Positions 25,994 through 55,488 of a stretch of DNA of 64,000 bases are shown here, piece after piece. Each line of letters opens with the position of its first letter. Position 1 is the stretch's first letter. The position numbers and the translations under genes are program-made. Source of the DNA: Candidatus Cloacimonadales bacterium (GTDB lineage Bacteria > Cloacimonadota > Cloacimonadia > Cloacimonadales > DAONDQ01); NCBI GenBank assembly GCA_963662275.1, contig OY759316.1, positions 320,001 through 384,000 on the forward strand, written 5' to 3'. The notes below the pieces were generated by a model. It saw only the letters and a list, made by a program, of their open reading frames with translations. It searched no databases and had not been told where the DNA came from.

Positions 25994-28900
25994 TCAATGC
26001 TGTTTTCTTGCAGATATATCATGCTTGATTTGTAATGGATTTTGTGCTTTCAGAGCATGAGCGTTGTTCCTGCCTGATTTGGTATTATTGACGGCAATGA
26101 TCTTATAGAAGTTCTTAAAAATACTTGAAGTATCCAAGTATGAATTCGTCGATACCGTTGTTACATAAGTCCAGAGACTATCAGATGCATACGGATCCGC
26201 TGATTTATAGACATTGTATCCTGTGGCATCGGAAGCTGGATTCCAATCCAGTTGAACACCTGTTGGAACCACGGTCAGGAAAATACTGTCAGGTACGGAG
26301 GGAATGATCGGTGGTGCTAATCCAGGCAGACCTACATCATCCAAAGATAAAAAGTATGCATCCACTGATGAGCAATGGAACGCGAAAGATGCAGTCTGAC
26401 CAGTGTATGGTGATAAATCTACTGAATAACCGGTATAGAGAACCGAATCAATGGTGAGATTTAACAACGGAGTCGCAGTGAAATCGACAGGTGTCTGACC
26501 TGTGGTTGACATGATAACTTGCATGGCTTCAGGATAATCGGCATCCATGCATTTTGCGTAGAATGACAAGATGTCACCATCTTGGATGTCATACCTTGGA
26601 GAAATCAACCAATCATTACAACCTGCAGAGTTCCAATACACACCTGCTGAATTGGTTCCAGAATGCGCTTCACCTGTGTAAATATCCCACGTAAAATCAT
26701 CTGTATCCAAATTATATACAGACCAGCCGGCAGGAACTGCTTCCCAGGTTACAGCATTGATACCTGCATTAGAAACAACCTCTATAGTAAAATCTCCTCC
26801 ATTAGAGGTGACTGATACTAATCCTGTAAATAGACCTTGCTCAATAGGTGTGTATGTAATCTCAATATCAATACTCCCGTTAGCACCTAGTGTTGTGAAA
26901 GTGGCTGGTCCTGAGAGCCCTTCAGAATAAGTAATCGTTCCAGTAGTATATGCTAAATCTGGAATATCTTGGATATTAAAGAAACCTGAAGAGCTGCCTC
27001 CAAGGGGTGTCACAGGCAGTATCATTTGGAATTTTGCAGGTTGAGGTACTCCATTAATCTGAATATCATCAAGACCTACACCAAAGGCACTATAGGATGC
27101 ATCAGTAACGTAGCGCCAACGGATTTGAATGATTCCACTATAAGATTCCAAACCCACAAACTCCTGATGATAAGCAGTTTCAACTGAAGCTGCTGACAGA
27201 GAAGTTAATACTGTCCATGTAGTCCCACCATCTGTTGTGATTTCAACATAAGTAGTATCATGCGCTACAATCTTGCCAGTAGCCATATCATTGTTCTTCC
27301 ACCACCAGCTCATATAGTTTAAATCTCCATTAATTTGAGGTGTTGTCAGAGTCTTAGTACCGGCAGGTGTATACGTAGCTCTTGCACCGTAAGTGCCTTC
27401 ATGTGAACCTGTAGTTCTTGACCATTGATCTGCAACCCAGCCTGCTGGGGGGAATATGGAATCTTCAAATCCCTCAAAATATGGGAAGTCAGTGATTGTA
27501 GGATCATCCATTGTCGTGAACTGCCAAACTGAACAACTATCTGCATTACCGCCAGGATTGTAAGGAATAATCTGCCAGTAGTAATGAGTACTATACGCAA
27601 GGTCACCTATTTCAGGCGTATATGTTGTGACATTGCCCAGGTTTTGTTCAAACAGTAGGTTGGTTGGTGGATTGTTTGTACCCAAGGATATCTTATATCC
27701 TGATGGGGGACCATAGATAAGGTTAGGATGCCAGGCACAAGTAGGCATAAGACTAACATTTGTTGCTAGATCAAGCGGTGAATCAACGAATGCGGAGGGT
27801 GGTGGTGGTGGTGGTGGTGCCTCAACAACGTTGATCGTGTAATCTTCCGTTTCTCCCCAGCTATAAGTTCCGACTGGTAATGTGTTTAGTTCCGTACCAC
27901 TTTCTTTCAGCACAACACGCAGACGTGTATCACCCAAAAGAACATCCCACGGAATTGAGATAAAACCGTTTACTTGCATATGTGTTGAAGAGGTTTGACC
28001 GGATAAAACCTGTTCATCAGGTAGATCGAAGGTTCCATTCTGGTTGAAGTCGATAAAGACTTTTCCCCAGCATGGGTAAAAATTATCTTCACTAATCTGA
28101 TGAATTTGGGTAGGATAACTATGACCCTGCTGTACATGGATTGTAATCGCTGTGTAATCCGTGTATGTATTTTCGGATGCAGCATTAGGTATAGAATCAG
28201 GATGTACTGCCGGATTGGTGACATCAGCCATAAGGAACTGCCCGATATCATCATCGTATATACTCGTCGCATAGGATTCACTATAAACCCAGCCCGTGCC
28301 TGTGGTAAATCTCCAAGTTGAACTGCCTACGGCATCACCATAGGTATTCTTTGCCACAACTTTCCAGAGATACATCGTATTAGCAGTCATCGTTGGAGGT
28401 GTCCAGGTCAGAGGAGTGGTCACGTTGGCATTGGCTGTGCCCGGTAAGGTTTGACCGAAGTACACATCATAAGAGGTTGCTGTCGCAACAGCACCCCAGG
28501 TTACCGAGGCATTTCTGCCAACATTGGCTGCACTATCTGCTGGTGTATGTACAGTAACAACACCGGGAACACCAACTGTGTAGAAACTCCAGACAGGGCA
28601 ACCGGTAGCATGACCGACCAAGTTGTAAGGAACAACTTTCCAGTAGTAATGTCCGTTCAGTGCAAGTCCTGCGGGCATATATTTGTTCACAAGACCGACA
28701 TCAACACTATCCACCATATTTGTAGGAGGATTATTGGTTCCTAAATAGATCAGGTAACCGGTTGGATCAGGACCCGAAGAATCTTTGATCCAGCTAAGGC
28801 TATCTGTAAGAGCAATCGAAGTTGCCCCATTCGTAGGATGAGTTACATAAGCAGGCAGTGGAGCTGTAGGAATCTTTTCGACTCTCACATCATCCACGTA

Positions 28901-31747
28901 TATATTGTTACCAAATTGACTCTTGACTTTCAGCATGACATATTTGCCATTACCGCCAGAACTGGTACCGAAAGGTACTACATACTGATGCCAGCCAGTG
29001 GTCGCTGTCGGTGCAAAAACACCGTCTCTCGGAACAAAAGTCAGTTTGGTTGCTGATGTTGTATCGGTAGGAGATGTTCCGTACCATACTGCGACGCCTT
29101 CATCTGAGAATTTAACAGTATTATAACTGCCGCTCAGATCGCGGTACATCCAGAAGGTAACACGATAATCATCACCAGGAACATTCATCGGTGGAGTTGA
29201 CATCACTGCATGGTTTCCACCGGTAATACTATACGCATTATAGCGAGTCATTCCAACACCGCTATGAGGTGTACAGGCAGGATTAGTTGATGATGTTGTC
29301 TGATAATCCCAGGCTACTGTTGAAGGTGTAGCAATCACCGGGATTTGAGGATCAAGCGCAGAGATGGACTGATTTGTCCAGCCATAAGGTCCGGAATAGG
29401 CTCTGTTAACATCAAAGCTTTCCACTAATGGGAAAGTTGTGACTAACGGATTCGGACCGACCGTAAATGTCCATACACTTGGTGTTCCGCCTGTTACGCC
29501 AAAATCGTTCTTCGGAACGATCTTCCAGGTGTAGGCTTGACCGTAGGTCATGGTTGGAGGTGTCCAGCTCAAAGGAGTGGTCACCGTTGCATTGGCTGTA
29601 CCTGGCATCGTGGTTCCGAAATACACATCATAGGCTGTGGCGTTCGTCACGGAAGACCAGGTAAGTGTTGCATTGTTCATCACCGGGTTGGCAGCATCAG
29701 CAGGATAAGGAGTCGTAGCAACTCCGGTTACTAATGAAGCTGTCGTGAATGACCAGGTTGCAGGGGTACTGCAATCACCAACAGCATTTTTAGGAACGAT
29801 TTTCCAATAATAGGGAGTTCCTGCTGTTAGTGGTGAACCATAAGTATAGGTAGAATCTGCTCCATTGTTATAATTACTTACAAGTTCATTGGCAGCAGCA
29901 GATGTGCCGAGATTGAACCAGTAACCTGTCGGAGCTGCGCCTAAAGGACCTCTGTGCCAGGTAAAGGTTGGAGAAGGTCCGACCAGGGTTGCAGTAATAG
30001 CCGGGTATGGCGTCGATGCTGCATCCGGAGTCTGCGGGATCTTCTCAATAATTATATCATCAATATACTGGGATGAACCATATAAGCTCAAACCTTTGAA
30101 GAATATGTATCTGCCAGAACCGGCTCCAACTGGAAGCGCTTGAGTAATTTGCTCCCAGCCCGTGGTTGCATTATAGCAGACTGCTGTTGTAAGCAGAGTG
30201 GCACCAGACAGGGTTGGACTGCTGTTGATATAAACTTCAGTTTTTTCATTAAGGTAAGTAGGATAACCATTATAATGACGATACTGGAATTTAACTCTGC
30301 AGGCATCAGCCGGCAAAGTCAAACGCGGAGAAATTAAAACACCCTGTGTTCCTGTGGAAAATCCGCCTGAACCAAAATAGGCTGAGCGTGTACCACTAAC
30401 ATAATAAGATGTTGAAGGAGCCCATATACCGGTAGATGCTGTTGTAATATCGGTTTTATAGGTTGTCCAGCCAACAGGCATCGTGGCGGCGGCATCAAAG
30501 TTCTGGTTCACAGAAGCTGAACCGAGGTTCACTGTCTGGTCTGCCCAGGTTGTAAACGTAGGTGTCGATGGTATTCCAGTCGAAGGACCTAATGCGTTTC
30601 TTCCAACGACTTTCCAGGTATAAGCCTGGCTATATGACAATTCACCAGGATCCCAGTAAACATAACTGGCTCCGGCATTGGGAACTACGTTCGCATTCGG
30701 TGTACCGGGCATGGTTATACCGAAGTACACATCATAGGATGTTGCACCGGAAAGTACTGACCATTGCAGGATACCGATATTGCTGACATTGCTTGCGCCA
30801 GTCGCAGGTAAAAAACCTGTGACAACACCTGTCAGCACTGAAGCAATCGTAAATTTCCAGATCGGTGTATAGGGGGCAGTACCTGATCCATCATAAGGAA
30901 CAGCAGCCCACCAATAAGCTGTCGAAGCAGCGAGGTTTGAGCCGGGAGTATAGGTATAAACAAGTCCAATATCAACGCCATTGGCATAGGTTGTCGGAAG
31001 CGTTGTACCCGAACCGTCAGTTCCTAAATATATCCTGTAGCCAGTGGGCGCATTGCCGTTACCGGCATTCCAAGTAAATGTAGGTCTGTAGCCAAGCCCT
31101 GTTGCCTGATGCATGGGAGCTGTAAATTCAGCTTGTGTGGGAGTGGCTAAGGAAGCTGTAAAAGATGTGAAATTAAGTCTGATATTCGGACGGGTGGACG
31201 TAGCCGTACCCGTTCCTGTGGGTATAGTATCAGCGCGTATGTACCAAGCTGAATTTGTTCCTGTAGTAACAGAGGCATAATATTGCGGATACGGGCTGTT
31301 GCCGCTGCCACCATAGTTACATTCCACCAGGACTTCCAAGTTGTTGGCATTATAATTGAAGTCTGCTGGCAAAGTCACATTTGCCCATGTTTGTAGAGTC
31401 AAACTGGCAATTGTACCAGTGTAAACAGCAGTCAAGCCGGTAGTCTTGGTTGCCCAAGTTTCTGCGACTTCTGCCGTAGCTGTGGTTGTTCTCATATAAA
31501 CGACCACGGGAATATTGGCAGTTGCCTTCGTAAGGTTTGGCAGGAAGCCCACGGAGCTAATCATGCCATAGCCTCCAATTTCTGTTGCCGTATAAATTTG
31601 GGCGGAACGCATGTAGCCATAATAACTGCCCCAACCATCGTAGCTTGTGGCTGATCCACCGCCGATTAAGGTAACTGCAGCAAACGCCGTTGTTACGCCG
31701 AGTATCAGAACAATCAATAAAATCGTTCTCTTTTGTAGATTTCTCAT
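25994..31747 (-). CDS. Giant secreted multidomain adhesin-like protein (FN3/Ig-like repeats, MAM/cleaved-adhesin-like modules, GEVED domain)
   Basis: Signal peptide; repeated P..W....TGY.IYLGT / W..V..ATSYDVYFG modules; WGETEDYTINV (GEVED); NDWLISP; poly-Pro linker. Start at ATG 31747 is spaced from GAGGAG. Confidence 0.85.
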   Translation of the reverse strand: MRNLQKRTILLIVLILGVTTAFAAVTLIGGGSATSYDGWGSYYGYMRSAQIYTATEIGGYGMISSVGFLPNLTKATANIPVVVYMRTTTATAEVAETWATKTTGLTAVYTGTIASLTLQTWANVTLPADFNYNANNLEVLVECNYGGSGNSPYPQYYASVTTGTNSAWYIRADTIPTGTGTATSTRPNIRLNFTSFTASLATPTQAEFTAPMHQATGLGYRPTFTWNAGNGNAPTGYRIYLGTDGSGTTLPTTYANGVDIGLVYTYTPGSNLAASTAYWWAAVPYDGSGTAPYTPIWKFTIASVLTGVVTGFLPATGASNVSNIGILQWSVLSGATSYDVYFGITMPGTPNANVVPNAGASYVYWDPGELSYSQAYTWKVVGRNALGPSTGIPSTPTFTTWADQTVNLGSASVNQNFDAAATMPVGWTTYKTDITTASTGIWAPSTSYYVSGTRSAYFGSGGFSTGTQGVLISPRLTLPADACRVKFQYRHYNGYPTYLNEKTEVYINSSPTLSGATLLTTAVCYNATTGWEQITQALPVGAGSGRYIFFKGLSLYGSSQYIDDIIIEKIPQTPDAASTPYPAITATLVGPSPTFTWHRGPLGAAPTGYWFNLGTSAAANELVSNYNNGADSTYTYGSPLTAGTPYYWKIVPKNAVGDCSTPATWSFTTASLVTGVATTPYPADAANPVMNNATLTWSSVTNATAYDVYFGTTMPGTANATVTTPLSWTPPTMTYGQAYTWKIVPKNDFGVTGGTPSVWTFTVGPNPLVTTFPLVESFDVNRAYSGPYGWTNQSISALDPQIPVIATPSTVAWDYQTTSSTNPACTPHSGVGMTRYNAYSITGGNHAVMSTPPMNVPGDDYRVTFWMYRDLSGSYNTVKFSDEGVAVWYGTSPTDTTSATKLTFVPRDGVFAPTATTGWHQYVVPFGTSSGGNGKYVMLKVKSQFGNNIYVDDVRVEKIPTAPLPAYVTHPTNGATSIALTDSLSWIKDSSGPDPTGYLIYLGTNNPPTNMVDSVDVGLVNKYMPAGLALNGHYYWKVVPYNLVGHATGCPVWSFYTVGVPGVVTVHTPADSAANVGRNASVTWGAVATATSYDVYFGQTLPGTANANVTTPLTWTPPTMTANTMYLWKVVAKNTYGDAVGSSTWRFTTGTGWVYSESYATSIYDDDIGQFLMADVTNPAVHPDSIPNAASENTYTDYTAITIHVQQGHSYPTQIHQISEDNFYPCWGKVFIDFNQNGTFDLPDEQVLSGQTSSTHMQVNGFISIPWDVLLGDTRLRVVLKESGTELNTLPVGTYSWGETEDYTINVVEAPPPPPPPSAFVDSPLDLATNVSLMPTCAWHPNLIYGPPSGYKISLGTNNPPTNLLFEQNLGNVTTYTPEIGDLAYSTHYYWQIIPYNPGGNADSCSVWQFTTMDDPTITDFPYFEGFEDSIFPPAGWVADQWSRTTGSHEGTYGARATYTPAGTKTLTTPQINGDLNYMSWWWKNNDMATGKIVAHDTTYVEITTDGGTTWTVLTSLSAASVETAYHQEFVGLESYSGIIQIRWRYVTDASYSAFGVGLDDIQINGVPQPAKFQMILPVTPLGGSSSGFFNIQDIPDLAYTTGTITYSEGLSGPATFTTLGANGSIDIEITYTPIEQGLFTGLVSVTSNGGDFTIEVVSNAGINAVTWEAVPAGWSVYNLDTDDFTWDIYTGEAHSGTNSAGVYWNSAGCNDWLISPRYDIQDGDILSFYAKCMDADYPEAMQVIMSTTGQTPVDFTATPLLNLTIDSVLYTGYSVDLSPYTGQTASFAFHCSSVDAYFLSLDDVGLPGLAPPIIPSVPDSIFLTVVPTGVQLDWNPASDATGYNVYKSADPYASDSLWTYVTTVSTNSYLDTSSIFKNFYKIIAVNNTKSGRNNAHALKAQNPLQIKHDISARKQH

Positions 31748-32234
31748 ATCCATCTCCTCATTTCTTGCTCTCATGAGAATTATCGAAAACTCTCAAACAG
31801 AACAAAGTTTTATGAACTCTTCAAATTCTTCAAAACAATCAGAAAATGTATTTAATATTACTAAACATATAAATGTCAGCGTAAAGTTATCTGTCAAACT
31901 ATTTTTTACAATTAATTTTAGATTTCTCAACAAATCTTCCTCTTTCGTAGAGATGCCTGAATTGGGCTACCAATGGCTATCGTTTACGAAAGGAAATGGA
32001 GTAGTTAAATGCATCATAGTGATCCTTTCTTCATTCATACAGCGTTTCTAAAAACTACATTTGCTGCACTGGAGAATCGATATTAAAAGATACTCAACAA
32101 TCTCTTACACGGCACTGAACCATCTCTCATATCCTGAGAGAATTTTATGTGTATCCTGAGGGAGTCTTTCATGTAGCTTGTAGGAGAAGAACAGTGAATC
32201 AAACTCTCCCCTACAAGATGCAATTTTATGTCGC

Positions 32235-32354: not shown

Positions 32355-32490
32355 CGTGGAGTAGGATTCCGATCCTACTAAACGCGAGACTATAGATAAT
32401 AAACAGTTCAATGCACAATGTTTTTCATAACCATCCACATTAATTTTAACAAAAGCTACGAGTTCAGTAGGATCGGAATCCTACTCCACG
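32355..32490. mobile_element. REPIN-like doublet of module E REPs in inverted orientation
   Basis: Perfect 25-bp inverted repeats CGTGGAGTAGGATTCCGATCCTACT (32355-32379) and AGTAGGATCGGAATCCTACTCCACG (32466-32490). Confidence 0.7.
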
Positions 32491-32783
32491 GTTCAATATG
32501 AATTTCACAATTGTACCATAACTTTGTAAGCTGTTATGTTATTGGGATTGCATCCCAATGACTCTGCAGACTCCTGATGTTACATACTTCAGGAGAAAAC
32601 AAGATACAATCTTATGCAATAGTCCGAAGGACGTTACTCTGCTAGCCCAGGAAGTCCTTCCTGGGTAATGGGTATACAGTTGGGAATGTAGGGGGCCGCG
32701 TCAGCAGACCCGCTTTGGTTCTGAGTCCGGTCGGAAGGCACAAATGAGAACAATAAACCGAGTATCATAGTTTGGGCACTGTT

Positions 32784-32960
32784 TTAATTAAGTATCTTTA
32801 CTAATTATGGGATGAGTACAACCAATAAAATATGTACACCCAAGTGGATAAGTAACTTCTACTTTTTATTCATATGCCTTTTCAAGCATTTTTCTAACAA
32901 CCGAATTGTTGGTGGGGAGATTATCTAACCTCCAATTAATGTTAAAATGAATTTCATCAT
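32784..32960 (-). pseudogene. Degenerate small membrane-protein gene with in-frame stops
   Basis: AAAAGGAG RBS, then MMKFILTLIGG*IISPPTIRLLEKCLKRHMNKK*KLLIHLGVHILLVVLIP*LVKILN*. Confidence 0.35.
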
Positions 32961-33203
32961 AACTCCTTTTGTGTTTGAAGATGCCCTCACTATGATCTAT
33001 TGTAAATATCTATTGAACTAACCCTACATACATTATCGAAGGGTTCAAATTATAACAGGATTCTAAATTCAAATGAACATAAGTATTTTCTTTACAATAT
33101 CCTAACTGCATATTAAAAACGTATTTATACTCATTATAACTGAGCTCACAACCACAAAAGAATAGGCATTGATAGATACAGTAGAAAAAAAACTGCATAT
33201 TGC

Positions 33204-47161: not shown

Positions 47162-47191
47162 AAAAAAAAGGGCGAGTTTGCACTCGCCCTT
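47162..47191 (-). terminator. Intrinsic terminator of the barrel-barrel-nucleotidase operon
   Basis: Minus strand AAGGGCGAGT-GCAA-ACTCGCCCTT followed by a T-tract. Confidence 0.8.
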
Positions 47192-47212
47192 CATATATAT
47201 AGCTTGGAATTC

Positions 47213-48889
47213 TTACTTAGGTAAGGACTCCAAGGCTTTTTTCAAATCAGGAGTAATTGAAGAACGATCATCTCTTTTCCATCTATCATCAATCTTAGTA
47301 CGGATTGGTGAATTCTTTTTAATGTAATTCACAATACCATCACGCAAGTTTGTCTGATAATTCGTGATTTGATCTTCAGGTACAGAAGTTAAAAAAGTAA
47401 GTCCAGCATTTCCCTGCATCAGGAAATCGGTTGTTGCAACTTTATACATTTTGTTTGGATCCCAAGGCTTACCATTGATGAGCAGTTTTGTGACACGATC
47501 CATATCCGGACGCTGTTTATTATAAACAACATTAGCACCGGAAACAAGCAGACCATGACGTCCTCCAGCAACACGTAATTCGATGATCTTTTTCAGGAAA
47601 GCACCGTTACACATGAAGGAAACGATTTGATTATCGAAAGGCATCACATCGAAAACCTGGCGATAAGTGACTGGTCCAACAGGAATCTGACCACGTACAC
47701 CACCAAGATTGAGGAATGCAAAATCAGCACCAACTTCTTCTCTGGTTGCATCTGTACACATATTACCGATTAGACTCTGAGCATCCACGTTTTCCTTGGA
47801 AAGGAAAACAGAGGCTTCTCCAACAACTTCATCCATTCCCTTTTCTGCTATTGCCTGCTCAGCTTTGATGTTTTTGGAAATTTCCTCATCCGGAAGAAAT
47901 TCATCATCAAACAAAGTTACAAGCACTCCTTCACGAACAGCAGGTAATTCATAACCTTCAATCTTTTTTGTCTTTGGATCGATATTCAGTGTGATGATAC
48001 CGAGGTTGCTGCCATAGGCATAACCTGTCATAACAAGTGTATGAGTGATGGGGTCTGACCAAGGTTTGGCAAAACCCTTATGCATATGTCCACCGAAGAA
48101 GATATCGATACCGGGTACTTCATGAGCTATTTCCTGTGCATCATAACCCCAGTAGCGTTCTAAGTTCTTACTCGAACCATCAGCATTATAACGGCTTTGA
48201 TAGGCAGGTTCGGGATCATAAGGAAGCCCCATATGACCAACGACAATGATCAAATCAGCACCTTCAGCTTTTACGATGGGAATATACTTATTCAAAGCTT
48301 CTTTTTCATCAGTAAATTCCAAACCTCTGATATTATCAGGAAAACTCATTTTCGCAATATCAGTTGTACACAAACCAATAACACCTATCTTTAAACCTAT
48401 TTTTTGAATAATGACATAAGGGCGTATGTATGGTGGTATTTCTTGTGTAGCTGGATTAATCAGGTTGGAACAAAGAATAGGAAATTTAGCCGTCGAGATA
48501 GCATCAATTAGTGCTTGCTCACCAGTATCATAATCATGGTTACCAAGTGCTAAAGCATCATATCCGATAGCATTGTAATAATTGATAATCGCTTTACCCT
48601 TGGTCACTGTACCGATTGGATGTCCCTGGAAGAAGTCCCCTGCATCAAGCAGCAAAGTTGCTTCTTTTGGACCTGACAAGGCACGATAATCTTTGATTAC
48701 CGTTGCGGCAGTACCGCCGCCACCCAACATAGGCGGGAAATCGGGATTGATGAATGTTGCAGGTGTACGATCAATACCACCATGTACATCATTCGTAAAA
48801 AGTATGTCCAGCTTCAGACTTTCAGCGCATAGCAATGATGATGATAGGCTGATCAGCAGAACAAGTGGCAGGAAATTTATCCATTTCAT
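47213..48889 (-). CDS. Secreted bifunctional metallophosphatase / 5'-nucleotidase (UshA/CpdB family)
   Basis: Signal peptide; FTNDVHG, LDAGDFFQG, LGNHD, GGHMH; C-terminal NLGGVRG, PFDN, VATTDF. Confidence 0.93.
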   Translation of the reverse strand: MKWINFLPLVLLISLSSSLLCAESLKLDILFTNDVHGGIDRTPATFINPDFPPMLGGGGTAATVIKDYRALSGPKEATLLLDAGDFFQGHPIGTVTKGKAIINYYNAIGYDALALGNHDYDTGEQALIDAISTAKFPILCSNLINPATQEIPPYIRPYVIIQKIGLKIGVIGLCTTDIAKMSFPDNIRGLEFTDEKEALNKYIPIVKAEGADLIIVVGHMGLPYDPEPAYQSRYNADGSSKNLERYWGYDAQEIAHEVPGIDIFFGGHMHKGFAKPWSDPITHTLVMTGYAYGSNLGIITLNIDPKTKKIEGYELPAVREGVLVTLFDDEFLPDEEISKNIKAEQAIAEKGMDEVVGEASVFLSKENVDAQSLIGNMCTDATREEVGADFAFLNLGGVRGQIPVGPVTYRQVFDVMPFDNQIVSFMCNGAFLKKIIELRVAGGRHGLLVSGANVVYNKQRPDMDRVTKLLINGKPWDPNKMYKVATTDFLMQGNAGLTFLTSVPEDQITNYQTNLRDGIVNYIKKNSPIRTKIDDRWKRDDRSSITPDLKKALESLPK

Positions 48890-48935: not shown

Positions 48936-50390
48936 TTACCAAGTGTATGTAATAGAAGCTAGAACCTTAACGAAAGTTTCACGTATAGCATCCGGATTTT
49001 CCCAACCACGATCAGCCAAGGTAATTGGATGCGATGAATTCATCCAAACCAGATAAGCTGCTGATCCCGGATTATATAGTTTATCATTGTAATAAGTATC
49101 CTGGAAAAGATCTAATGCTTCATAAGTGCGGAATGAATATGAGACGGCAAAGTCAAAATATACTTTGTTACTGATCGAATATCCTGTACCTGCACTGAAA
49201 GAAGGTGTGATGATCTTATTCGCATACACCGTGTAGTCATCTGAGATAGTCTGGAAAGTAGTTTCCGTACTAAAACCAGCACGGAGTGGGAATCTACCGG
49301 TAATACCATGTTCGATACCTACGGAATAATTGAGCACATTATGATCAAAATGTTCATCAGTTTCATACCAGTTCACTATTTCTACTTCTGCATTGAAATT
49401 CGTTCTCAGGATATTTCGAGGGGTATAACTAAGTCCCATTCTAAAGGAAGAAGGCATAGTATAGCCTTGTAAAGCTAAACTATCTTCATAAGTTTTGGCT
49501 ACTTGCACTGGAATATCGTTTTCACCATAAATATCCTTGAAACTATCAAATTTGCTCGTTACAGAAAGTTCGGATTTACTTGTGTATCTGAAACCTAAGG
49601 TGAAACGTTCTGTCCATTGACCCAACCAGCCAAACTGTAACTGACTACCATTAAAGTTCCTAGAGATACTCTTTGTATAATCCGGTAACAGATTATGACC
49701 TGGATTAGCGATGTTGGAGGTACTCGCAATAACTGTTCGGATAGCCCAATCCGACCAGCGGATCTTTGTTTCCTGTTCATTATTACCAGTCAAAGAAGCA
49801 TACTTGAAGCCAAATGACATCTTACTCATATCAGATTCAATCATATAAGCAAAATTGATACCTGTGGAATTCATCTTTCCCTTGTTCGTGATGAAGTTTT
49901 TAGCAATGATTTCCGGGTAAGTGTCATTATCGCTGTTACGATTATTACGAACTTCTTCGCGGTATTTAGAGCTAAAATCGACAATCGGCATGACTTCCAA
50001 ACCAAGTGCACAAGTACCACTTCCAAAATGCGTCGTCGTCATAACGGTACCTGCATAATCGTCAAATCCATGTGTGTTGGAAGCATATACAGCATCAGCA
50101 ATATAGTTATCAAATGAATTATAGAAAGGTAAACTGCGGGTTTCTTCCAACTGTGTTGAACCTAGAGATAATTCAGCCGCAAATTTGGCATTCAGCATCG
50201 CAGCAACAGCAGGATTGAGATTTGCATTCATGGGTCTTGCTCCAATCGTCATACCCGTATTTCCCATTGCCATGGAACGCGCATCAAAGGATAAGATTCG
50301 GTTACCGAAGGCACTGTCGGTGAGTGAATAAGAAAAAAGAGAAAAGGCTGCTAAGAGCAGGCTCAGACAGAATAAATATCTTTTATTCAT
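48936..50390 (-). CDS. Outer-membrane beta-barrel, FadL/TodX/PorV-like
   Basis: Signal peptide; DARSMAMG...NPA N-terminal plug motif; amphipathic strands; C-terminal ITYTW. ATG 50390 follows GGAGG. Confidence 0.75.
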   Translation of the reverse strand: MNKRYLFCLSLLLAAFSLFSYSLTDSAFGNRILSFDARSMAMGNTGMTIGARPMNANLNPAVAAMLNAKFAAELSLGSTQLEETRSLPFYNSFDNYIADAVYASNTHGFDDYAGTVMTTTHFGSGTCALGLEVMPIVDFSSKYREEVRNNRNSDNDTYPEIIAKNFITNKGKMNSTGINFAYMIESDMSKMSFGFKYASLTGNNEQETKIRWSDWAIRTVIASTSNIANPGHNLLPDYTKSISRNFNGSQLQFGWLGQWTERFTLGFRYTSKSELSVTSKFDSFKDIYGENDIPVQVAKTYEDSLALQGYTMPSSFRMGLSYTPRNILRTNFNAEVEIVNWYETDEHFDHNVLNYSVGIEHGITGRFPLRAGFSTETTFQTISDDYTVYANKIITPSFSAGTGYSISNKVYFDFAVSYSFRTYEALDLFQDTYYNDKLYNPGSAAYLVWMNSSHPITLADRGWENPDAIRETFVKVLASITYTW

Positions 50391-50407: not shown

Positions 50408-53113
50408 TTAGAATTTCCAGTCAATTTGAAGTCTAATTGAGTTTTCAACACGTTCCACACGTTGGAAGTAATTATTCTGGTTGTCAGGGTAGGCTATATT
50501 ATACTGTCTGACAAACTCTTCCAGTGTTTGGTATTCTTTGTATTTATATTTAAAGCTGATAAACACGTTATGAGCTAATTGATCTTGGATCGTAAACCAG
50601 TATTTCATCCCTTTTTGACCCATGAAATCGATTTCGATATCTTCCCAGTCCCAGTGTGATATGCCATGACCGTTCCAATATAAAACGGAACCGTCAACCG
50701 ATAAATTATCGTTGAAATTGTGGGAGTAATTCACAGCCACAAAATCACCTGTCATTTGGGTTGAACCATTTGCCTGATTGTTGGCAACAGGTACAGCGGG
50801 GTATGTGATCGATAGATAGGGTGGTCCCCATACGGTGTTATAACGATATTCAAATGACATATAGTCACGTGAAGTCAAGAAAGTTGCTACGCTGGCAGTA
50901 TATTCGTCTGTTTTGGAAACAGCACGGTCTGCACTTTCATCATAGCGATTGATTTGTTTCTTATATTTTGCTCGGAAACTGATCTGATAGACTGGGCGAT
51001 AATCAAGGTCACCTTGGAAGCGAACGCTTTTGCGATGATCTGAAAGACGTTCCCAAATATCTACATAGGTCTTTCCTAGAGTGAAATAACTGTTGAAACG
51101 ATAACGCGTTTCAAAGTACAAACCTCTTTCCGCCTGGGCTTGAGCATTGTTATAAACCATATCACCAATGAGAGGATTCGTCATGGTATAATTGTATTTT
51201 TCCACAACAGTATCCGTTAATTTTTGATGTTCCGAAAAAGCTCTGCTGTAGGGATTATCGAAATTCAAATCATAATTACGATACAAGCTTAAAAGATACA
51301 AATTATCGAATTGAGTGTATGAACTCAGAACAACAGCTTTTGGATCATCTCCCAGTATGGTATCTTTTCCATTCACTGATAATTCAGCATATTCACCCTG
51401 GAAAGAAGTGTTCTTGATAACGCTCATCCAGTCAAAACCTACTACACGACGATAATCCCGATCGTAATTGCCATTCTTAGTACTATATAAATTACTGAGT
51501 TCCGAATCAGGAGTCTTCCAGTATTTATAGTTATAAGAATCACGAATCAGGAGTTGCTTCAAATCAGCATCTTTCGGGATTACAAAATCAGTGTTATCAT
51601 ATACGGAAGTATAAGTGGTAAAACCGAAATTCGTTCCAACAAAAGGACTGAGAGTAAGATGTCCACCAGTGACAGTTTCGGTCAGGAAATTTTCACGTGG
51701 TGCAAGATTGATATATGGAACAGCCCAAGGATATACATTCGGATAGGTAGTATGATCAATGACAGAAAGCTCATGATCAAAATAATTCTCAGCTTCGGTT
51801 AATTCATCATTATCAAAACCGTGTGTTGAAGTGACATAGCTTAAAACCTGGTAAGTTCCATCATCATTTTTCAAAGGATGCGAGTGATGAGTTCCATCAG
51901 CCCACACTGAATCAGCCATATAAACGATAGCATCTTTTTTATCACGTGAGTAGAAGAAAGATGCATCCATCCAAGTTTTCCGTAATTCCAAGGCGAGTCC
52001 CTTCATCGAATATTCCTGGGTACGTGATAAATCAGGGGTGATACCAAGAATACGTTTCGTAAATCCATAACCGGTATTACGTGATGTATAATAGTCTGTA
52101 TTATCTAAAATCAGACCTTCTCCATAAGTAACACGGTAATTACCGAAATATTGTTTGATCCCAGTGGCTCCAAAAAAATCAACTGTGTTCTCATAACCAG
52201 CATAGAATTTTCCATTATCCAGTAATTCCTGTCCACCTGTTTTGAAGATGTCTTCATTCCCTGATGGTGAGTCATAGAGGATACCTGCTTTGATATTGTT
52301 GCCATAACGAATTCTGACCTTATTCAAAACAGATGGAGCATAACTATCCATGTGTAAAAATCCCCAATAGCTGTTATTCTTATGGTTAATAGCAGCGACA
52401 ACAGCATCCGGTAGGGGAGTGCTAGAAGCGACCATACCATATGTTGGACGTAAAATCGCCTGTTTGTACATAGCCATAGGGTCATCTTCCAATGGAGTGC
52501 TCTGGTATTTGAGTTGATAATCCACGAAAATTCTGTCTTTGATGGGTGGTTCTTTGTAATACACATAGTTTTTCATATTCGAATACCCATAAAATGAAAG
52601 ACCCGGAGAATTCTTTAAATCTCTTTGATCAATCAGAGTATCACCCTGTGCGCGACGCTTCATAACGGCATACGCATCAACAGGAGAGACATTGGGCAAA
52701 CTCAGGTAGTCGTTAAAGAACATACCATTTGCATTTTGAGGGGTCATTAAAAAATCTTCCCAAACATCAGACATACCTTCTTGCGATCCTTCGTTTGCAT
52801 CCATCCGCTGTAAGAGATAACCGATTTGTGCTCTGCGTATTACAGAATCATCAGTTTCCACATAATGTGTTAGGATGATCAAAGGGCGAAGTTTTTCTAA
52901 TGTAGGTTGATCAACAGAAGATACCTTACGTAAATCGTAGATGTCTTCGAAATAGGCAACGTATTGCCTGTAATCATAAATATCCTTGGCTTGTTGTTCT
53001 GTTATTGGTAGAGTTCTTAACTCTGCAAAAGTCGCTGAATTCAAATCAACTTTTACTGCAAATAACGGAATCGCTAACATGCACAAGAAAAGGAATAGGA
53101 ATTTTTTCATCAT
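50408..53113 (-). CDS. ComEA-like helix-hairpin-helix domain protein fused to an outer-membrane beta-barrel
   Basis: Signal peptide; VDLNSAT..EL..LP...QAKDI.DYR...F..I.DL..V (ComEA HhH); a second degenerate HhH; GNYRVTYGEGL; C-terminal beta signal LQIDWKF. Confidence 0.8.
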   Translation of the reverse strand: MMKKFLFLFLCMLAIPLFAVKVDLNSATFAELRTLPITEQQAKDIYDYRQYVAYFEDIYDLRKVSSVDQPTLEKLRPLIILTHYVETDDSVIRRAQIGYLLQRMDANEGSQEGMSDVWEDFLMTPQNANGMFFNDYLSLPNVSPVDAYAVMKRRAQGDTLIDQRDLKNSPGLSFYGYSNMKNYVYYKEPPIKDRIFVDYQLKYQSTPLEDDPMAMYKQAILRPTYGMVASSTPLPDAVVAAINHKNNSYWGFLHMDSYAPSVLNKVRIRYGNNIKAGILYDSPSGNEDIFKTGGQELLDNGKFYAGYENTVDFFGATGIKQYFGNYRVTYGEGLILDNTDYYTSRNTGYGFTKRILGITPDLSRTQEYSMKGLALELRKTWMDASFFYSRDKKDAIVYMADSVWADGTHHSHPLKNDDGTYQVLSYVTSTHGFDNDELTEAENYFDHELSVIDHTTYPNVYPWAVPYINLAPRENFLTETVTGGHLTLSPFVGTNFGFTTYTSVYDNTDFVIPKDADLKQLLIRDSYNYKYWKTPDSELSNLYSTKNGNYDRDYRRVVGFDWMSVIKNTSFQGEYAELSVNGKDTILGDDPKAVVLSSYTQFDNLYLLSLYRNYDLNFDNPYSRAFSEHQKLTDTVVEKYNYTMTNPLIGDMVYNNAQAQAERGLYFETRYRFNSYFTLGKTYVDIWERLSDHRKSVRFQGDLDYRPVYQISFRAKYKKQINRYDESADRAVSKTDEYTASVATFLTSRDYMSFEYRYNTVWGPPYLSITYPAVPVANNQANGSTQMTGDFVAVNYSHNFNDNLSVDGSVLYWNGHGISHWDWEDIEIDFMGQKGMKYWFTIQDQLAHNVFISFKYKYKEYQTLEEFVRQYNIAYPDNQNNYFQRVERVENSIRLQIDWKF

Positions 53114-54945: not shown

Positions 54946-55488
54946 ATGTTCATGAAAAAGGTATTAACTTTTTGCGCTCTTGTAATTACCATCTCTTTAT
55001 GTGCAACCGAACCAATAAAAGGTTCAGTTGGTCTTGGATTAGGTATTCCTTATGGATTTATGGGTATGAATATGGATTATTATCTGAATCAATATGCTGC
55101 TCTCACTGCAGGTGTTGGATCGACTAATATTGCCGGAATTGGATTCAGTGTCGGTACTAAATATTATTTTGTAGATGATACAAAGAGTTTTCGTCCAAGA
55201 CTGACAGCCATGGCTGGAATTAATGGTGCATTGAAAAAAGAGATATTTGATAATGAAGTCACTGGTTCAAGCGAAGATTTAATCAAAGAAACTTTTCCAG
55301 GAGTATCGTTAGGTTTGGGAGCTTTAATAACTTGGGGTGAAAATAAACAGCAAGGGCTTGATTTTGATGTTTTTTATATCTGTTCAAGTGGTATCTATGA
55401 TAGAATATCAAATCTTAGAGACCATGGTTATGATATAAAAAAACCTGGGAGAATTAGCATTTCCTTTGGATATAGATATCAGTTTTAA
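54946..55488 (+). CDS. Small outer-membrane beta-barrel protein
   Basis: Signal peptide, Gly/aromatic alternating strands, C-terminal ISFGYRYQF. Confidence 0.65.
   Translation: MFMKKVLTFCALVITISLCATEPIKGSVGLGLGIPYGFMGMNMDYYLNQYAALTAGVGSTNIAGIGFSVGTKYYFVDDTKSFRPRLTAMAGINGALKKEIFDNEVTGSSEDLIKETFPGVSLGLGALITWGENKQQGLDFDVFYICSSGIYDRISNLRDHGYDIKKPGRISISFGYRYQF

Follow-up and report, generated by a model that had tools for sequence, protein, structure and literature searches.

To our knowledge, the passage of nucleic acids across the bacterial outer membrane is known only for type IV pilus/secretin systems and, since 2021-2025, for the TonB-dependent DdbC-type transporters of the Bacteroidota. Among the abundant and mostly uncultured bacteria of sediments, digesters and the deep ocean are Cloacimonadota, Marinimicrobia, Zixibacteria and related groups, and in these habitats extracellular DNA and nucleotides make up a major pool of phosphorus and nucleosides. 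Here, we describe a gene on the minus strand of a 64,000-nucleotide stretch of a Candidatus Cloacimonadales genome (contig OY759316.1, positions 320,001 to 384,000, hereafter the window). It encodes P0001, a secreted protein in which two ComEA-type helix-hairpin-helix (HhH) domains of the (HhH)2 kind stand N-terminal to a beta-barrel of about 24 strands. The reading that we favor, and which we consider about evenly balanced between right and wrong, is that P0001 forms the large pore of an outer-membrane station importing nucleic-acid-derived material, which the product of a second gene of the same unit, P0003, dephosphorylates at the periplasmic exit.

The ddbABCDEF genes of Bacteroidales and their homologues in Riemerella anatipestifer encode a barrel of the TonB-dependent type with a CarboxypepD_reg domain (DdbC, RA0C_RS04915), a DUF5689 surface protein (DdbD, RA0C_RS04920) and nucleases (PMC12478041, PMC8459023). 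The DUF5689 family members DdbD and RA0C_RS04920 are proposed to bind DNA at the cell surface for DNA utilization or transformation (PMC12478041, PMC8459023), and a separate HhH protein is described there as essential for transformation in Riemerella (PMC8459023). Pairs of barrels are also on record: the FadL-fold barrels BamG and PorV each bind a larger one, and BamG, besides binding the barrel of BamA, also docks a lipoprotein at the surface (PMC12611786). The protein considered here is laid out as follows, all on the minus strand.

50408..53113, minus strand: P0001, coding sequence of the 901-amino-acid (aa) HhH-barrel protein, stop codon counted in
53057..53113, minus strand: signal peptide, aa 1-19, MMKKFLFLFLCMLAIPLFA, read from the sequence, with a putative cleavage site
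52865..53056, minus strand: HhH domain 1, aa 20-83, a ComEA-type (HhH)2 fold with non-canonical hairpins, from Pfam HHH_3, fold match and hairpin comparison
52742..52864, minus strand: helical linker of acidic character, aa 84-124, with a net charge of -6 (-6.7 on average over 55 homologues), from helix prediction and charge count
52553..52741, minus strand: HhH domain 2, aa 125-187, a diverged HHH_3, from HHH_3 matches in distant homologues, alignment and helix pattern, with weak hhalign and fold matches
50411..52531, minus strand: beta-barrel, aa 195-901, with about 24 predicted transmembrane strands, from AlphaFold2 (AF2) secondary structure, conservation, strand phase and fold searches

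The open reading frame was confirmed as 901 codons from an ATG at 53113, and its first residues, MMKKF, agree with the N-terminus of the family consensus; the homologues start alike, with MKK followed by a hydrophobic stretch. An alternative TTG 39 nucleotides (nt) upstream would place extra residues before the signal peptide and change nothing else. HHH_3 was the only Pfam match of P0001 at E-values up to 1, and PADLOC returned no match for P0001 or for its two operon partners, P0002 and P0003. A sequence-only reading of this DNA had proposed an open reading frame with a signal peptide, a ComEA HhH domain and a barrel at these positions, and the reading frame, the HHH_3 match and the AF2 barrel bear it out.

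The first HhH domain is the best-defined part of the protein. Pfam HHH_3 covers aa 19-79 (E 9.1e-12, 45.4 bits against a cut-off of 27), and in an AF2 model of the N-terminal part (aa 18-200, 55 homologous sequences, pLDDT 82) aa 18-83 match Geobacillus ComEA (8dss) with a VIA Z of 12.7, a root mean square deviation (rmsd) of 1.2 Å over 65 residues and 34% identity; the Tex HhH region (Z 11.2) and the ComEA-related Thermus protein 2duy (Z 10.4) were also found with this model. The domain had earlier been called a clear ComEA HhH domain, and in fold it is one. In the profile searches, the HHH_3 cut-off was passed and those of the NCBIfam ComEA families were not (TIGR01259, 31.3 bits against 152.35; TIGR00426, 22.9 against 53.1).

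Domain 2 was undetected by Pfam in P0001 proper. Eight of 10 distant proteins scanned are matched twice by HHH_3, with the second match at the position of domain 2, and in three of these eight the second match is the best-scoring stretch; the remaining two are P0194, with one HHH_3 match, and P0265, a low-complexity artefact. The domain aligns column by column between a distant homologue and P0001 (LQNVSPVDAVAI versus LPNVSPVDAYAV), and the helix pattern of domain 1 recurs about 105 residues downstream in the AF2 models. An hhalign comparison of the two domains gave a P-value of 8.5e-4 in the correct register and a probability of only 24%, and domain 2 alone gave a weak match to the ERCC1-XPF (HhH)2 region (VIA Z 3.8) and another to a further (HhH)2 fold (Z 2.3). 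Foldseek with the N-terminal model returned no match at E-values up to 0.001, and the VIA list was taken up by domain 1. The second, degenerate copy that had been suspected is thus real but diverged, as the HHH_3 matches in the distant proteins and the repeated helix pattern indicate. One family variant, P0204 (1251 aa), has about 430 extra N-terminal residues, including TPR repeats, in front of its two HHH_3 domains and barrel.

The canonical HhH motif is a G-h-G hairpin with adjacent lysines. The ComEA encoded elsewhere in this genome has it (LPGIGEKKA, IKGIGPKL, LPGIGPVKA, VKGIGPKT), whereas it is found in neither HhH domain of P0001, where the hairpins read LPITEQQA and VSSVDQPT in domain 1 and NVSPVDA and PGLSFYGY in domain 2, and the residues that replace G-I-G are kept across phyla. 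Net charge is -2 in domain 1 (mean -2.6 over the 55 homologues) and +2 in domain 2 (mean +2.3), and 14 of the 19 columns with at least 70% charged residues are acidic. The conserved basic HhH surface that a DNA-handling role had led the sequence-only reading to expect is therefore partly missing, domain 1 being net acidic throughout the family and most of the conserved charged columns likewise. Net charge by itself does not settle the matter, because a domain of the canonical ComEA of this genome, too, came out acidic when its residues were counted.

In the whole-protein AF2 model (42 sequences, pLDDT 70.5, pTM 0.68), residues 195 to 901, the last being the terminal F, form a large, closed beta-barrel of about 24 strands, which accounts for the stretch of about 700 strand-rich residues ending in IDWKF that had been noticed from the letters; the family consensus ends in LDYRF. 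Turns of 2-5 residues alternate with long loops along the chain, a pattern that fits 24 strands with both termini in the periplasm, and a first count of about 26 strands from DSSP segments was dropped because this alternation fits 24. Soluble N-terminal domains of outer-membrane barrels face the periplasm in the usual topology, and by that topology the HhH module, which precedes strand 1, would be periplasmic. When solved structures were searched by sequence, with the single protein and with the 42-sequence profile, the HhH part alone found matches and the barrel none. With the barrel model, the best Foldseek match was the FimD translocation domain (E 6e-9, with low TM-scores), and a VIA-wide search also returned FimD (3ohn_B, Z 14.9, rmsd 5.6 Å, 375 residues aligned), followed without a gap by VDAC, PapC, a SusC-like protein and MtrB at Z 13-14. 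Conservation within the barrel is highest in three long loops that are extracellular in the 24-strand topology, with a mean top-residue frequency of 0.74 (aa 327-369), 0.69 (aa 816-833) and 0.64 (aa 615-661) against 0.58 for the whole barrel; they may fold into the lumen. Lumen charge was estimated by a crude strand-phase proxy, taking the more polar face of the strands and not coordinates, and gave 28 K+R against 21 D+E on the polar face (family mean net +8.8, n = 67), compared to 70 K+R against 89 D+E in the whole barrel region.

P0001 is the first gene of a unit of three, and the remaining features of this unit are as follows.

48936..50390, minus strand: P0002, coding sequence of 484 aa, a partner barrel of the FadL/PorV/BamG superfamily, from profile matches and synteny
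47213..48889, minus strand: P0003, coding sequence of 558 aa, a periplasmic 5'-nucleotidase/UshA-family metallophosphoesterase, from Pfam, structure match, motifs and signal peptides
47167..47192, minus strand: terminator-like hairpin with an 11-bp stem, 6 G-C pairs and a T run, 21 nt past the P0003 stop

The genes lie on the same strand with gaps of 17 nt (P0001-P0002) and 46 nt (P0002-P0003), and no hairpin of strength comparable to the one after P0003 occurs within the unit. Gaps and terminator together point to one co-transcribed three-gene unit.

P0002 scores under every curated cut-off for FadL/TodX, PorV/PorQ and BamG (Toluene_X, E 1.6e-3 and 17.4 bits against 29.7; PorV_fam, E 2.7e-8 and 33.8 bits against 90). 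A profile of 27 homologues reached TbuX (1.1e-16), TodX (3.7e-13), FadL (3.4e-8), PorV (1.3e-5) and BamG (8.8e-3), and among these homologues PorV_fam matched 25 of 27 and BamG 18 of 27. By profile similarity, P0002 is classed as a distant FadL-fold barrel. As the cell's own BamG or PorV it was rejected, since other genes of this genome score better (141 bits for BamG, 247 bits for PorV).

P0003 is matched by Metallophos (53.9 bits) and 5_nucleotid_C (118.2 bits), both over their cut-offs, and its nearest solved structure is 3ivd (E 7.6e-58). Residues N33, D34, H36, D82, G84, D85, N117, H118, H219, H268 and H270 are invariant in 32 homologues, by which the predicted catalytic site is intact. 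The score against the UshA equivalog (182.7 bits, cut-off 600) makes it a member of the family and not an UshA orthologue. The N-termini of 85 inspected homologues are signal peptides of the SPI type, Cys21 of the window protein is not conserved and the Pfam scan found no type IX secretion system (T9SS) sorting domain, and for these reasons the enzyme is predicted to be soluble in the periplasm.

A word-based search returned 268 relatives of P0001, all named ones being from Cloacimonadota; an exhaustive search returned 514 cluster representatives at an E-value of at most 1e-3 and 87 at 1e-30, including full-length proteins with 30-35% identity to P0001; and two scans of species genomes confirmed 280 and 460 relatives, of which 67 and 79 loci were kept. 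Record titles place the carriers in Cloacimonadota, Eisenbacteria, Zixibacteria, Gemmatimonadota (metagenome-assembled genomes so labelled), Ignavibacteria, Calditrichota and Marinimicrobia, and WOR-3 (from cluster names) and Fidelibacterota (from the Atlas) can be added. The trio is thus common to Cloacimonadota and many phyla that the record titles place in or near the Fibrobacterota-Chlorobiota-Bacteroidota (FCB) group. The Atlas also holds a 664-aa Bacteroidota HhH cluster.

Within Cloacimonadota, the P0001 family profile was found in 185 of 201 genomes, mostly as a single copy, in 140 of the 151 high-quality genomes and in 54 of 60 genera. A P0002-like gene follows the barrel gene in 59 and a P0003-like gene in 54 of the 67 Cloacimonadota loci, and every locus without one of them stops at a contig edge. 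In the 79 loci from other phyla, tblastn matched a P0002-like gene in 64 and a P0003-like gene in 65; 13 of the 14 loci without P0003 are cut by a contig end, and the last (L096, Calditrichota) has unrelated genes in its place. The sole Cloacimonadota family that was sampled several times and lacks the HhH barrel consists of closed genomes of 1.5-1.6 Mb (0 of 6; G002, G005, G008, G017, G022 and G064). In five of these six, the nucleotidase is full-length but for one in-frame stop in two (G005 and G008), a weak partial match in two and without any match in one, and the P0002 profile finds weak matches only. The absence of barrel and nucleotidase in this family is probably one loss event and was counted once, and the in-frame stops in G005 and G008 look like the decay of a partner after loss of the pore.

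Outside Cloacimonadota, the trio is part of a longer cassette. In 52 of 70 anchored loci, the gene directly upstream encodes a barrel of about 300 aa (cluster 4, matched weakly by Toluene_X and TraF_2), compared to 0 of 65 Cloacimonadota loci for this small PorV/PorQ-like barrel, and large proteins with LTD, OB-fold, DUF5689 and FlgD_ig/T9SS sorting domains are encoded up- and downstream of the trio. The DUF5689 and HhH themes shared with the described DNA systems link the P0001 family to DNA. The window genome encodes counterparts of these proteins at other positions. T9SS-sorted proteins of 1710 aa (three LTD and four DUF5689 domains) and 598 aa (LTD, DUF5689) are found at C1:~2009112-2016176 (L181 4113-11177, minus strand), and a cas6b and a TM1802-type cas gene lie immediately downstream of them. 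A small PorV/PorQ-like barrel of 282-301 aa, which matches the upstream barrel of the other phyla at E 2e-47, is encoded at C1:~3753994-3756416 (L182 7995-10417, minus strand) behind a protein of 520 aa that DUF5689 and FlgD_ig match weakly, and the two are a split-off part of the longer cassette. Genes for signal peptidase II and a PNP_UDP_1 nucleoside phosphorylase adjoin this small barrel.

Elsewhere in the window, 54946-55488 on the plus strand encodes a 180-aa protein with a signal peptide and the C-terminus YRYQF that resembles a small outer-membrane beta-barrel, and on the minus strand, 25994-31774 is a very long open reading frame of 1926 aa.

Because the three genes stay together across deep divergences and domain 1 seems unfit for DNA binding, docking of the HhH module on P0003 was examined by complex prediction, using aa 18-200 of P0001 (55-row alignment) and mature P0003 (32 rows). 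The runs scored 0.62, 0.62 and 0.48 (median 0.62), compared to 0.00 for the best of three controls, with at least 53% of the contacts in common between runs and a partner pLDDT of at least 66. Of 157 solved complexes, 116 reached this score mark, and of 215 mismatched pairs, 2 did so, a calibration that is rough here since our own alignments were used. On the HhH side, the predicted interface lies in domain 1 (aa 56-59, 62, 69-73, 76 and 80-85) and includes the degenerate second hairpin; on the side of P0003, it lies in aa 227-238, 275-285 and 304-313, three segments that are subfamily insertions relative to 3ivd. The complex model favors binding of domain 1 to P0003 without demonstrating it.

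In the mechanism that we propose, extracellular oligonucleotides or nucleotides, perhaps DNA strands, would cross the outer membrane via the P0001 barrel. In other phyla, surface proteins from the same operon, with LTD, OB-fold, DUF5689 and T9SS sorting domains, would capture the material first, and in the window genome such capture proteins would be supplied from genes away from the trio. Like PorV beside SprA and BamG beside BamA, the FadL-like barrel P0002 would sit against the P0001 barrel. P0003 would be kept at the periplasmic exit by the N-terminal module, with HhH domain 1 and its degenerate hairpins as the predicted docking site, and domain 2 may still hold nucleic acid. P0003 would then take off the 5'-phosphate, and nucleosides and phosphate would pass to inner-membrane carriers. 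A more far-reaching idea, which we regard as tentative and rather doubtful, is that the ComEA-type HhH domain has changed from a DNA clamp to an enzyme-docking adaptor by which the barrel keeps a 5'-nucleotidase under its exit as a channel-enzyme assembly, and that this assembly and its FadL-fold side barrel constitute a TonB- and pilus-independent route of nucleic-acid import that is near-core in many mostly uncultured phyla.

Several observations weigh against import of nucleic-acid-derived material by P0001. The loss of G-I-G and the net acidity of domain 1, as judged from sequence, count against nucleic-acid binding by the HhH module. The barrel model has no specific counterpart among solved families, since the best match, FimD at Z 14.9, is closely followed by many unrelated barrels at Z 12-14, and the conserved loops are modelled at low confidence, so that the lumen is only putatively open. 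The predicted interface is not better conserved than its surroundings (0.51 against 0.58 for the rest on the HhH side; 0.59 against 0.61 on the enzyme side), and position sets drawn at random had a mean at least as high in 92% and 59% of cases, respectively. The 5'-nucleotidase acts on mononucleotides, and no nuclease Pfam domain that could cut a polymer was found in the sampled proteins neighboring the cassettes. In the window genome the trio stands alone, with the LTD/DUF5689 proteins 1.6 Mb and the small PorV-like barrel 3.4 Mb away. Finally, near-universal presence in single copy throughout a phylum would also fit a housekeeping role in the envelope.

The last point leads to the possibility that the barrel and its FadL-fold partner attach T9SS cargo to the surface or export it, or form some other housekeeping machine of the envelope, in which the HhH domains serve protein docking only and the nucleotidase is a client. 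The membership of P0002 in the PorV/PorQ/BamG group would fit such a complex, as would the T9SS-sorted proteins and the second small PorV/PorQ-like barrel of the longer cassettes (52 of 70 anchored non-Cloacimonadota loci), the degenerate DNA-binding hairpins and the protein docking predicted for domain 1. However, the cargo-like neighbors are all of nucleic-acid-binding types (LTD, OB-fold, DUF5689), the nucleotidase has an SPI signal peptide in place of a T9SS sorting domain, and the genome has better candidates for both BamG and PorV, which makes this explanation unlikely in our view. We give hardly any credence to an anchor role, in which P0001 would expose its HhH module on the cell surface and tether extracellular DNA there as part of a biofilm matrix. 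The HhH fold and the DNA-binding neighbors in other phyla would suit such an anchor, but the usual topology puts soluble N-terminal domains in the periplasm, the even strand number with short turns on the side of both termini fits a periplasmic N-terminus, and the nucleotidase partner would be without a role.

The sequence-only reading had understood P0001 as a competence channel, in which transforming DNA would cross the outer membrane through the barrel, with the fused ComEA-like domains as a ratchet in the periplasm that passes it to ComEC. Part of this stands, namely a periplasm-facing tandem module of the ComEA-type fold that is fused to a large barrel, in a gene neighborhood suggestive of nucleic acids. 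The barrel is also of the 24-strand usher size class, the strand-phase proxy for its lumen is net basic, ComEC is encoded in the genome, and Riemerella transformation combines a non-pilus outer-membrane barrel with a required HhH protein (PMC8459023). The ratchet itself is weakened by the absence of G-I-G from the fused domains and the acidity of domain 1. The genome moreover encodes a canonical ComEA of 208 aa with an N-terminal membrane anchor, two HHH_3 domains and intact G-I-G, located outside the window (C1:~32377-33003; L072 1489-2115, minus strand), along with ComEC and two secretins, so that a competence role is not needed for P0001. The constant partner across phyla is a catabolic 5'-nucleotidase and not ComEC, ComF or DprA, and no competence genes were present among the neighbors searched. 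Taken together, this makes a competence channel quite improbable, and we retain the import of nucleic-acid-derived material as our reading.

We found no description of the P0001 family in the literature searched (on ComEA, the outer membrane, Cloacimonadota, Marinimicrobia, extracellular DNA, nucleotidases and Riemerella transformation, in main texts and not supplements), and the part of PMC11129491 at hand does not mention it. Our reading of P0001 also lends itself to a simple test, through the enzyme docking that is predicted for a degenerate ComEA domain.

Comparison with known systems shows where the trio resembles them and where it departs. The best structural match of the barrel, the chaperone-usher pores FimD and PapC, has a similar strand number (24), but P0001 has no usher sequence similarity, plug or N- or C-terminal usher domains (no Pfam usher match), and the likeness, as far as the models go, is one of shared size class only, with many unrelated barrels within 2 Z units. 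With SprA-PorV and BamA-BamG, the trio shares a distant FadL/PorV/BamG member, P0002, encoded beside a large barrel; it differs in that P0002 stays under the curated cut-offs and that the genome has separate, better BamG and PorV candidates. P0003 is the same two-domain enzyme as UshA (E. coli 1ush; nearest solved structure, 3ivd), with metal and substrate motifs intact and an SPI signal peptide, but it falls under the equivalog cut-off, differs from 3ivd by small insertions where docking is predicted and is genetically tied to a dedicated pore. General or Tsx-type porins are described as the entry route of nucleotides in Vibrio and E. coli.

The kinship with ComEA lies in the (HhH)2 fold and HHH_3 match of domain 1 and in the tandem arrangement, which is also that of the ComEA of this genome. 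Unlike ComEA, the HhH part of P0001 is fused to a barrel of about 700 aa, has its G-I-G replaced and domain 1 acidic, scores far under the NCBIfam ComEA cut-offs and has a conserved 5'-nucleotidase partner. The ddb and Riemerella systems offer the closest functional parallel, with a pilus-independent DNA route across the outer membrane, surface proteins of the DUF5689 type, which recur in the longer P0001 cassettes, and degradative enzymes alongside. They differ in that P0001 itself carries HhH domains and that the enzymes there are nucleases, compared to a 5'-nucleotidase in the P0001 trio. In contrast to DdbC, P0001 has no Plug, TonB_dep_Rec or CarboxypepD_reg match in Pfam at E-values up to 1, and structures of TonB-dependent transporters align with its barrel as generic barrels only (Z 10-14); the resemblance is functional, and the pore is not homologous. 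If our reading is true, the P0001 trio is an uncharacterized variant of outer-membrane nutrient-uptake systems, and the P0001 family would be a third architecture for the uptake of nucleic acids across the outer membrane, one that is near-universal in at least one phylum.

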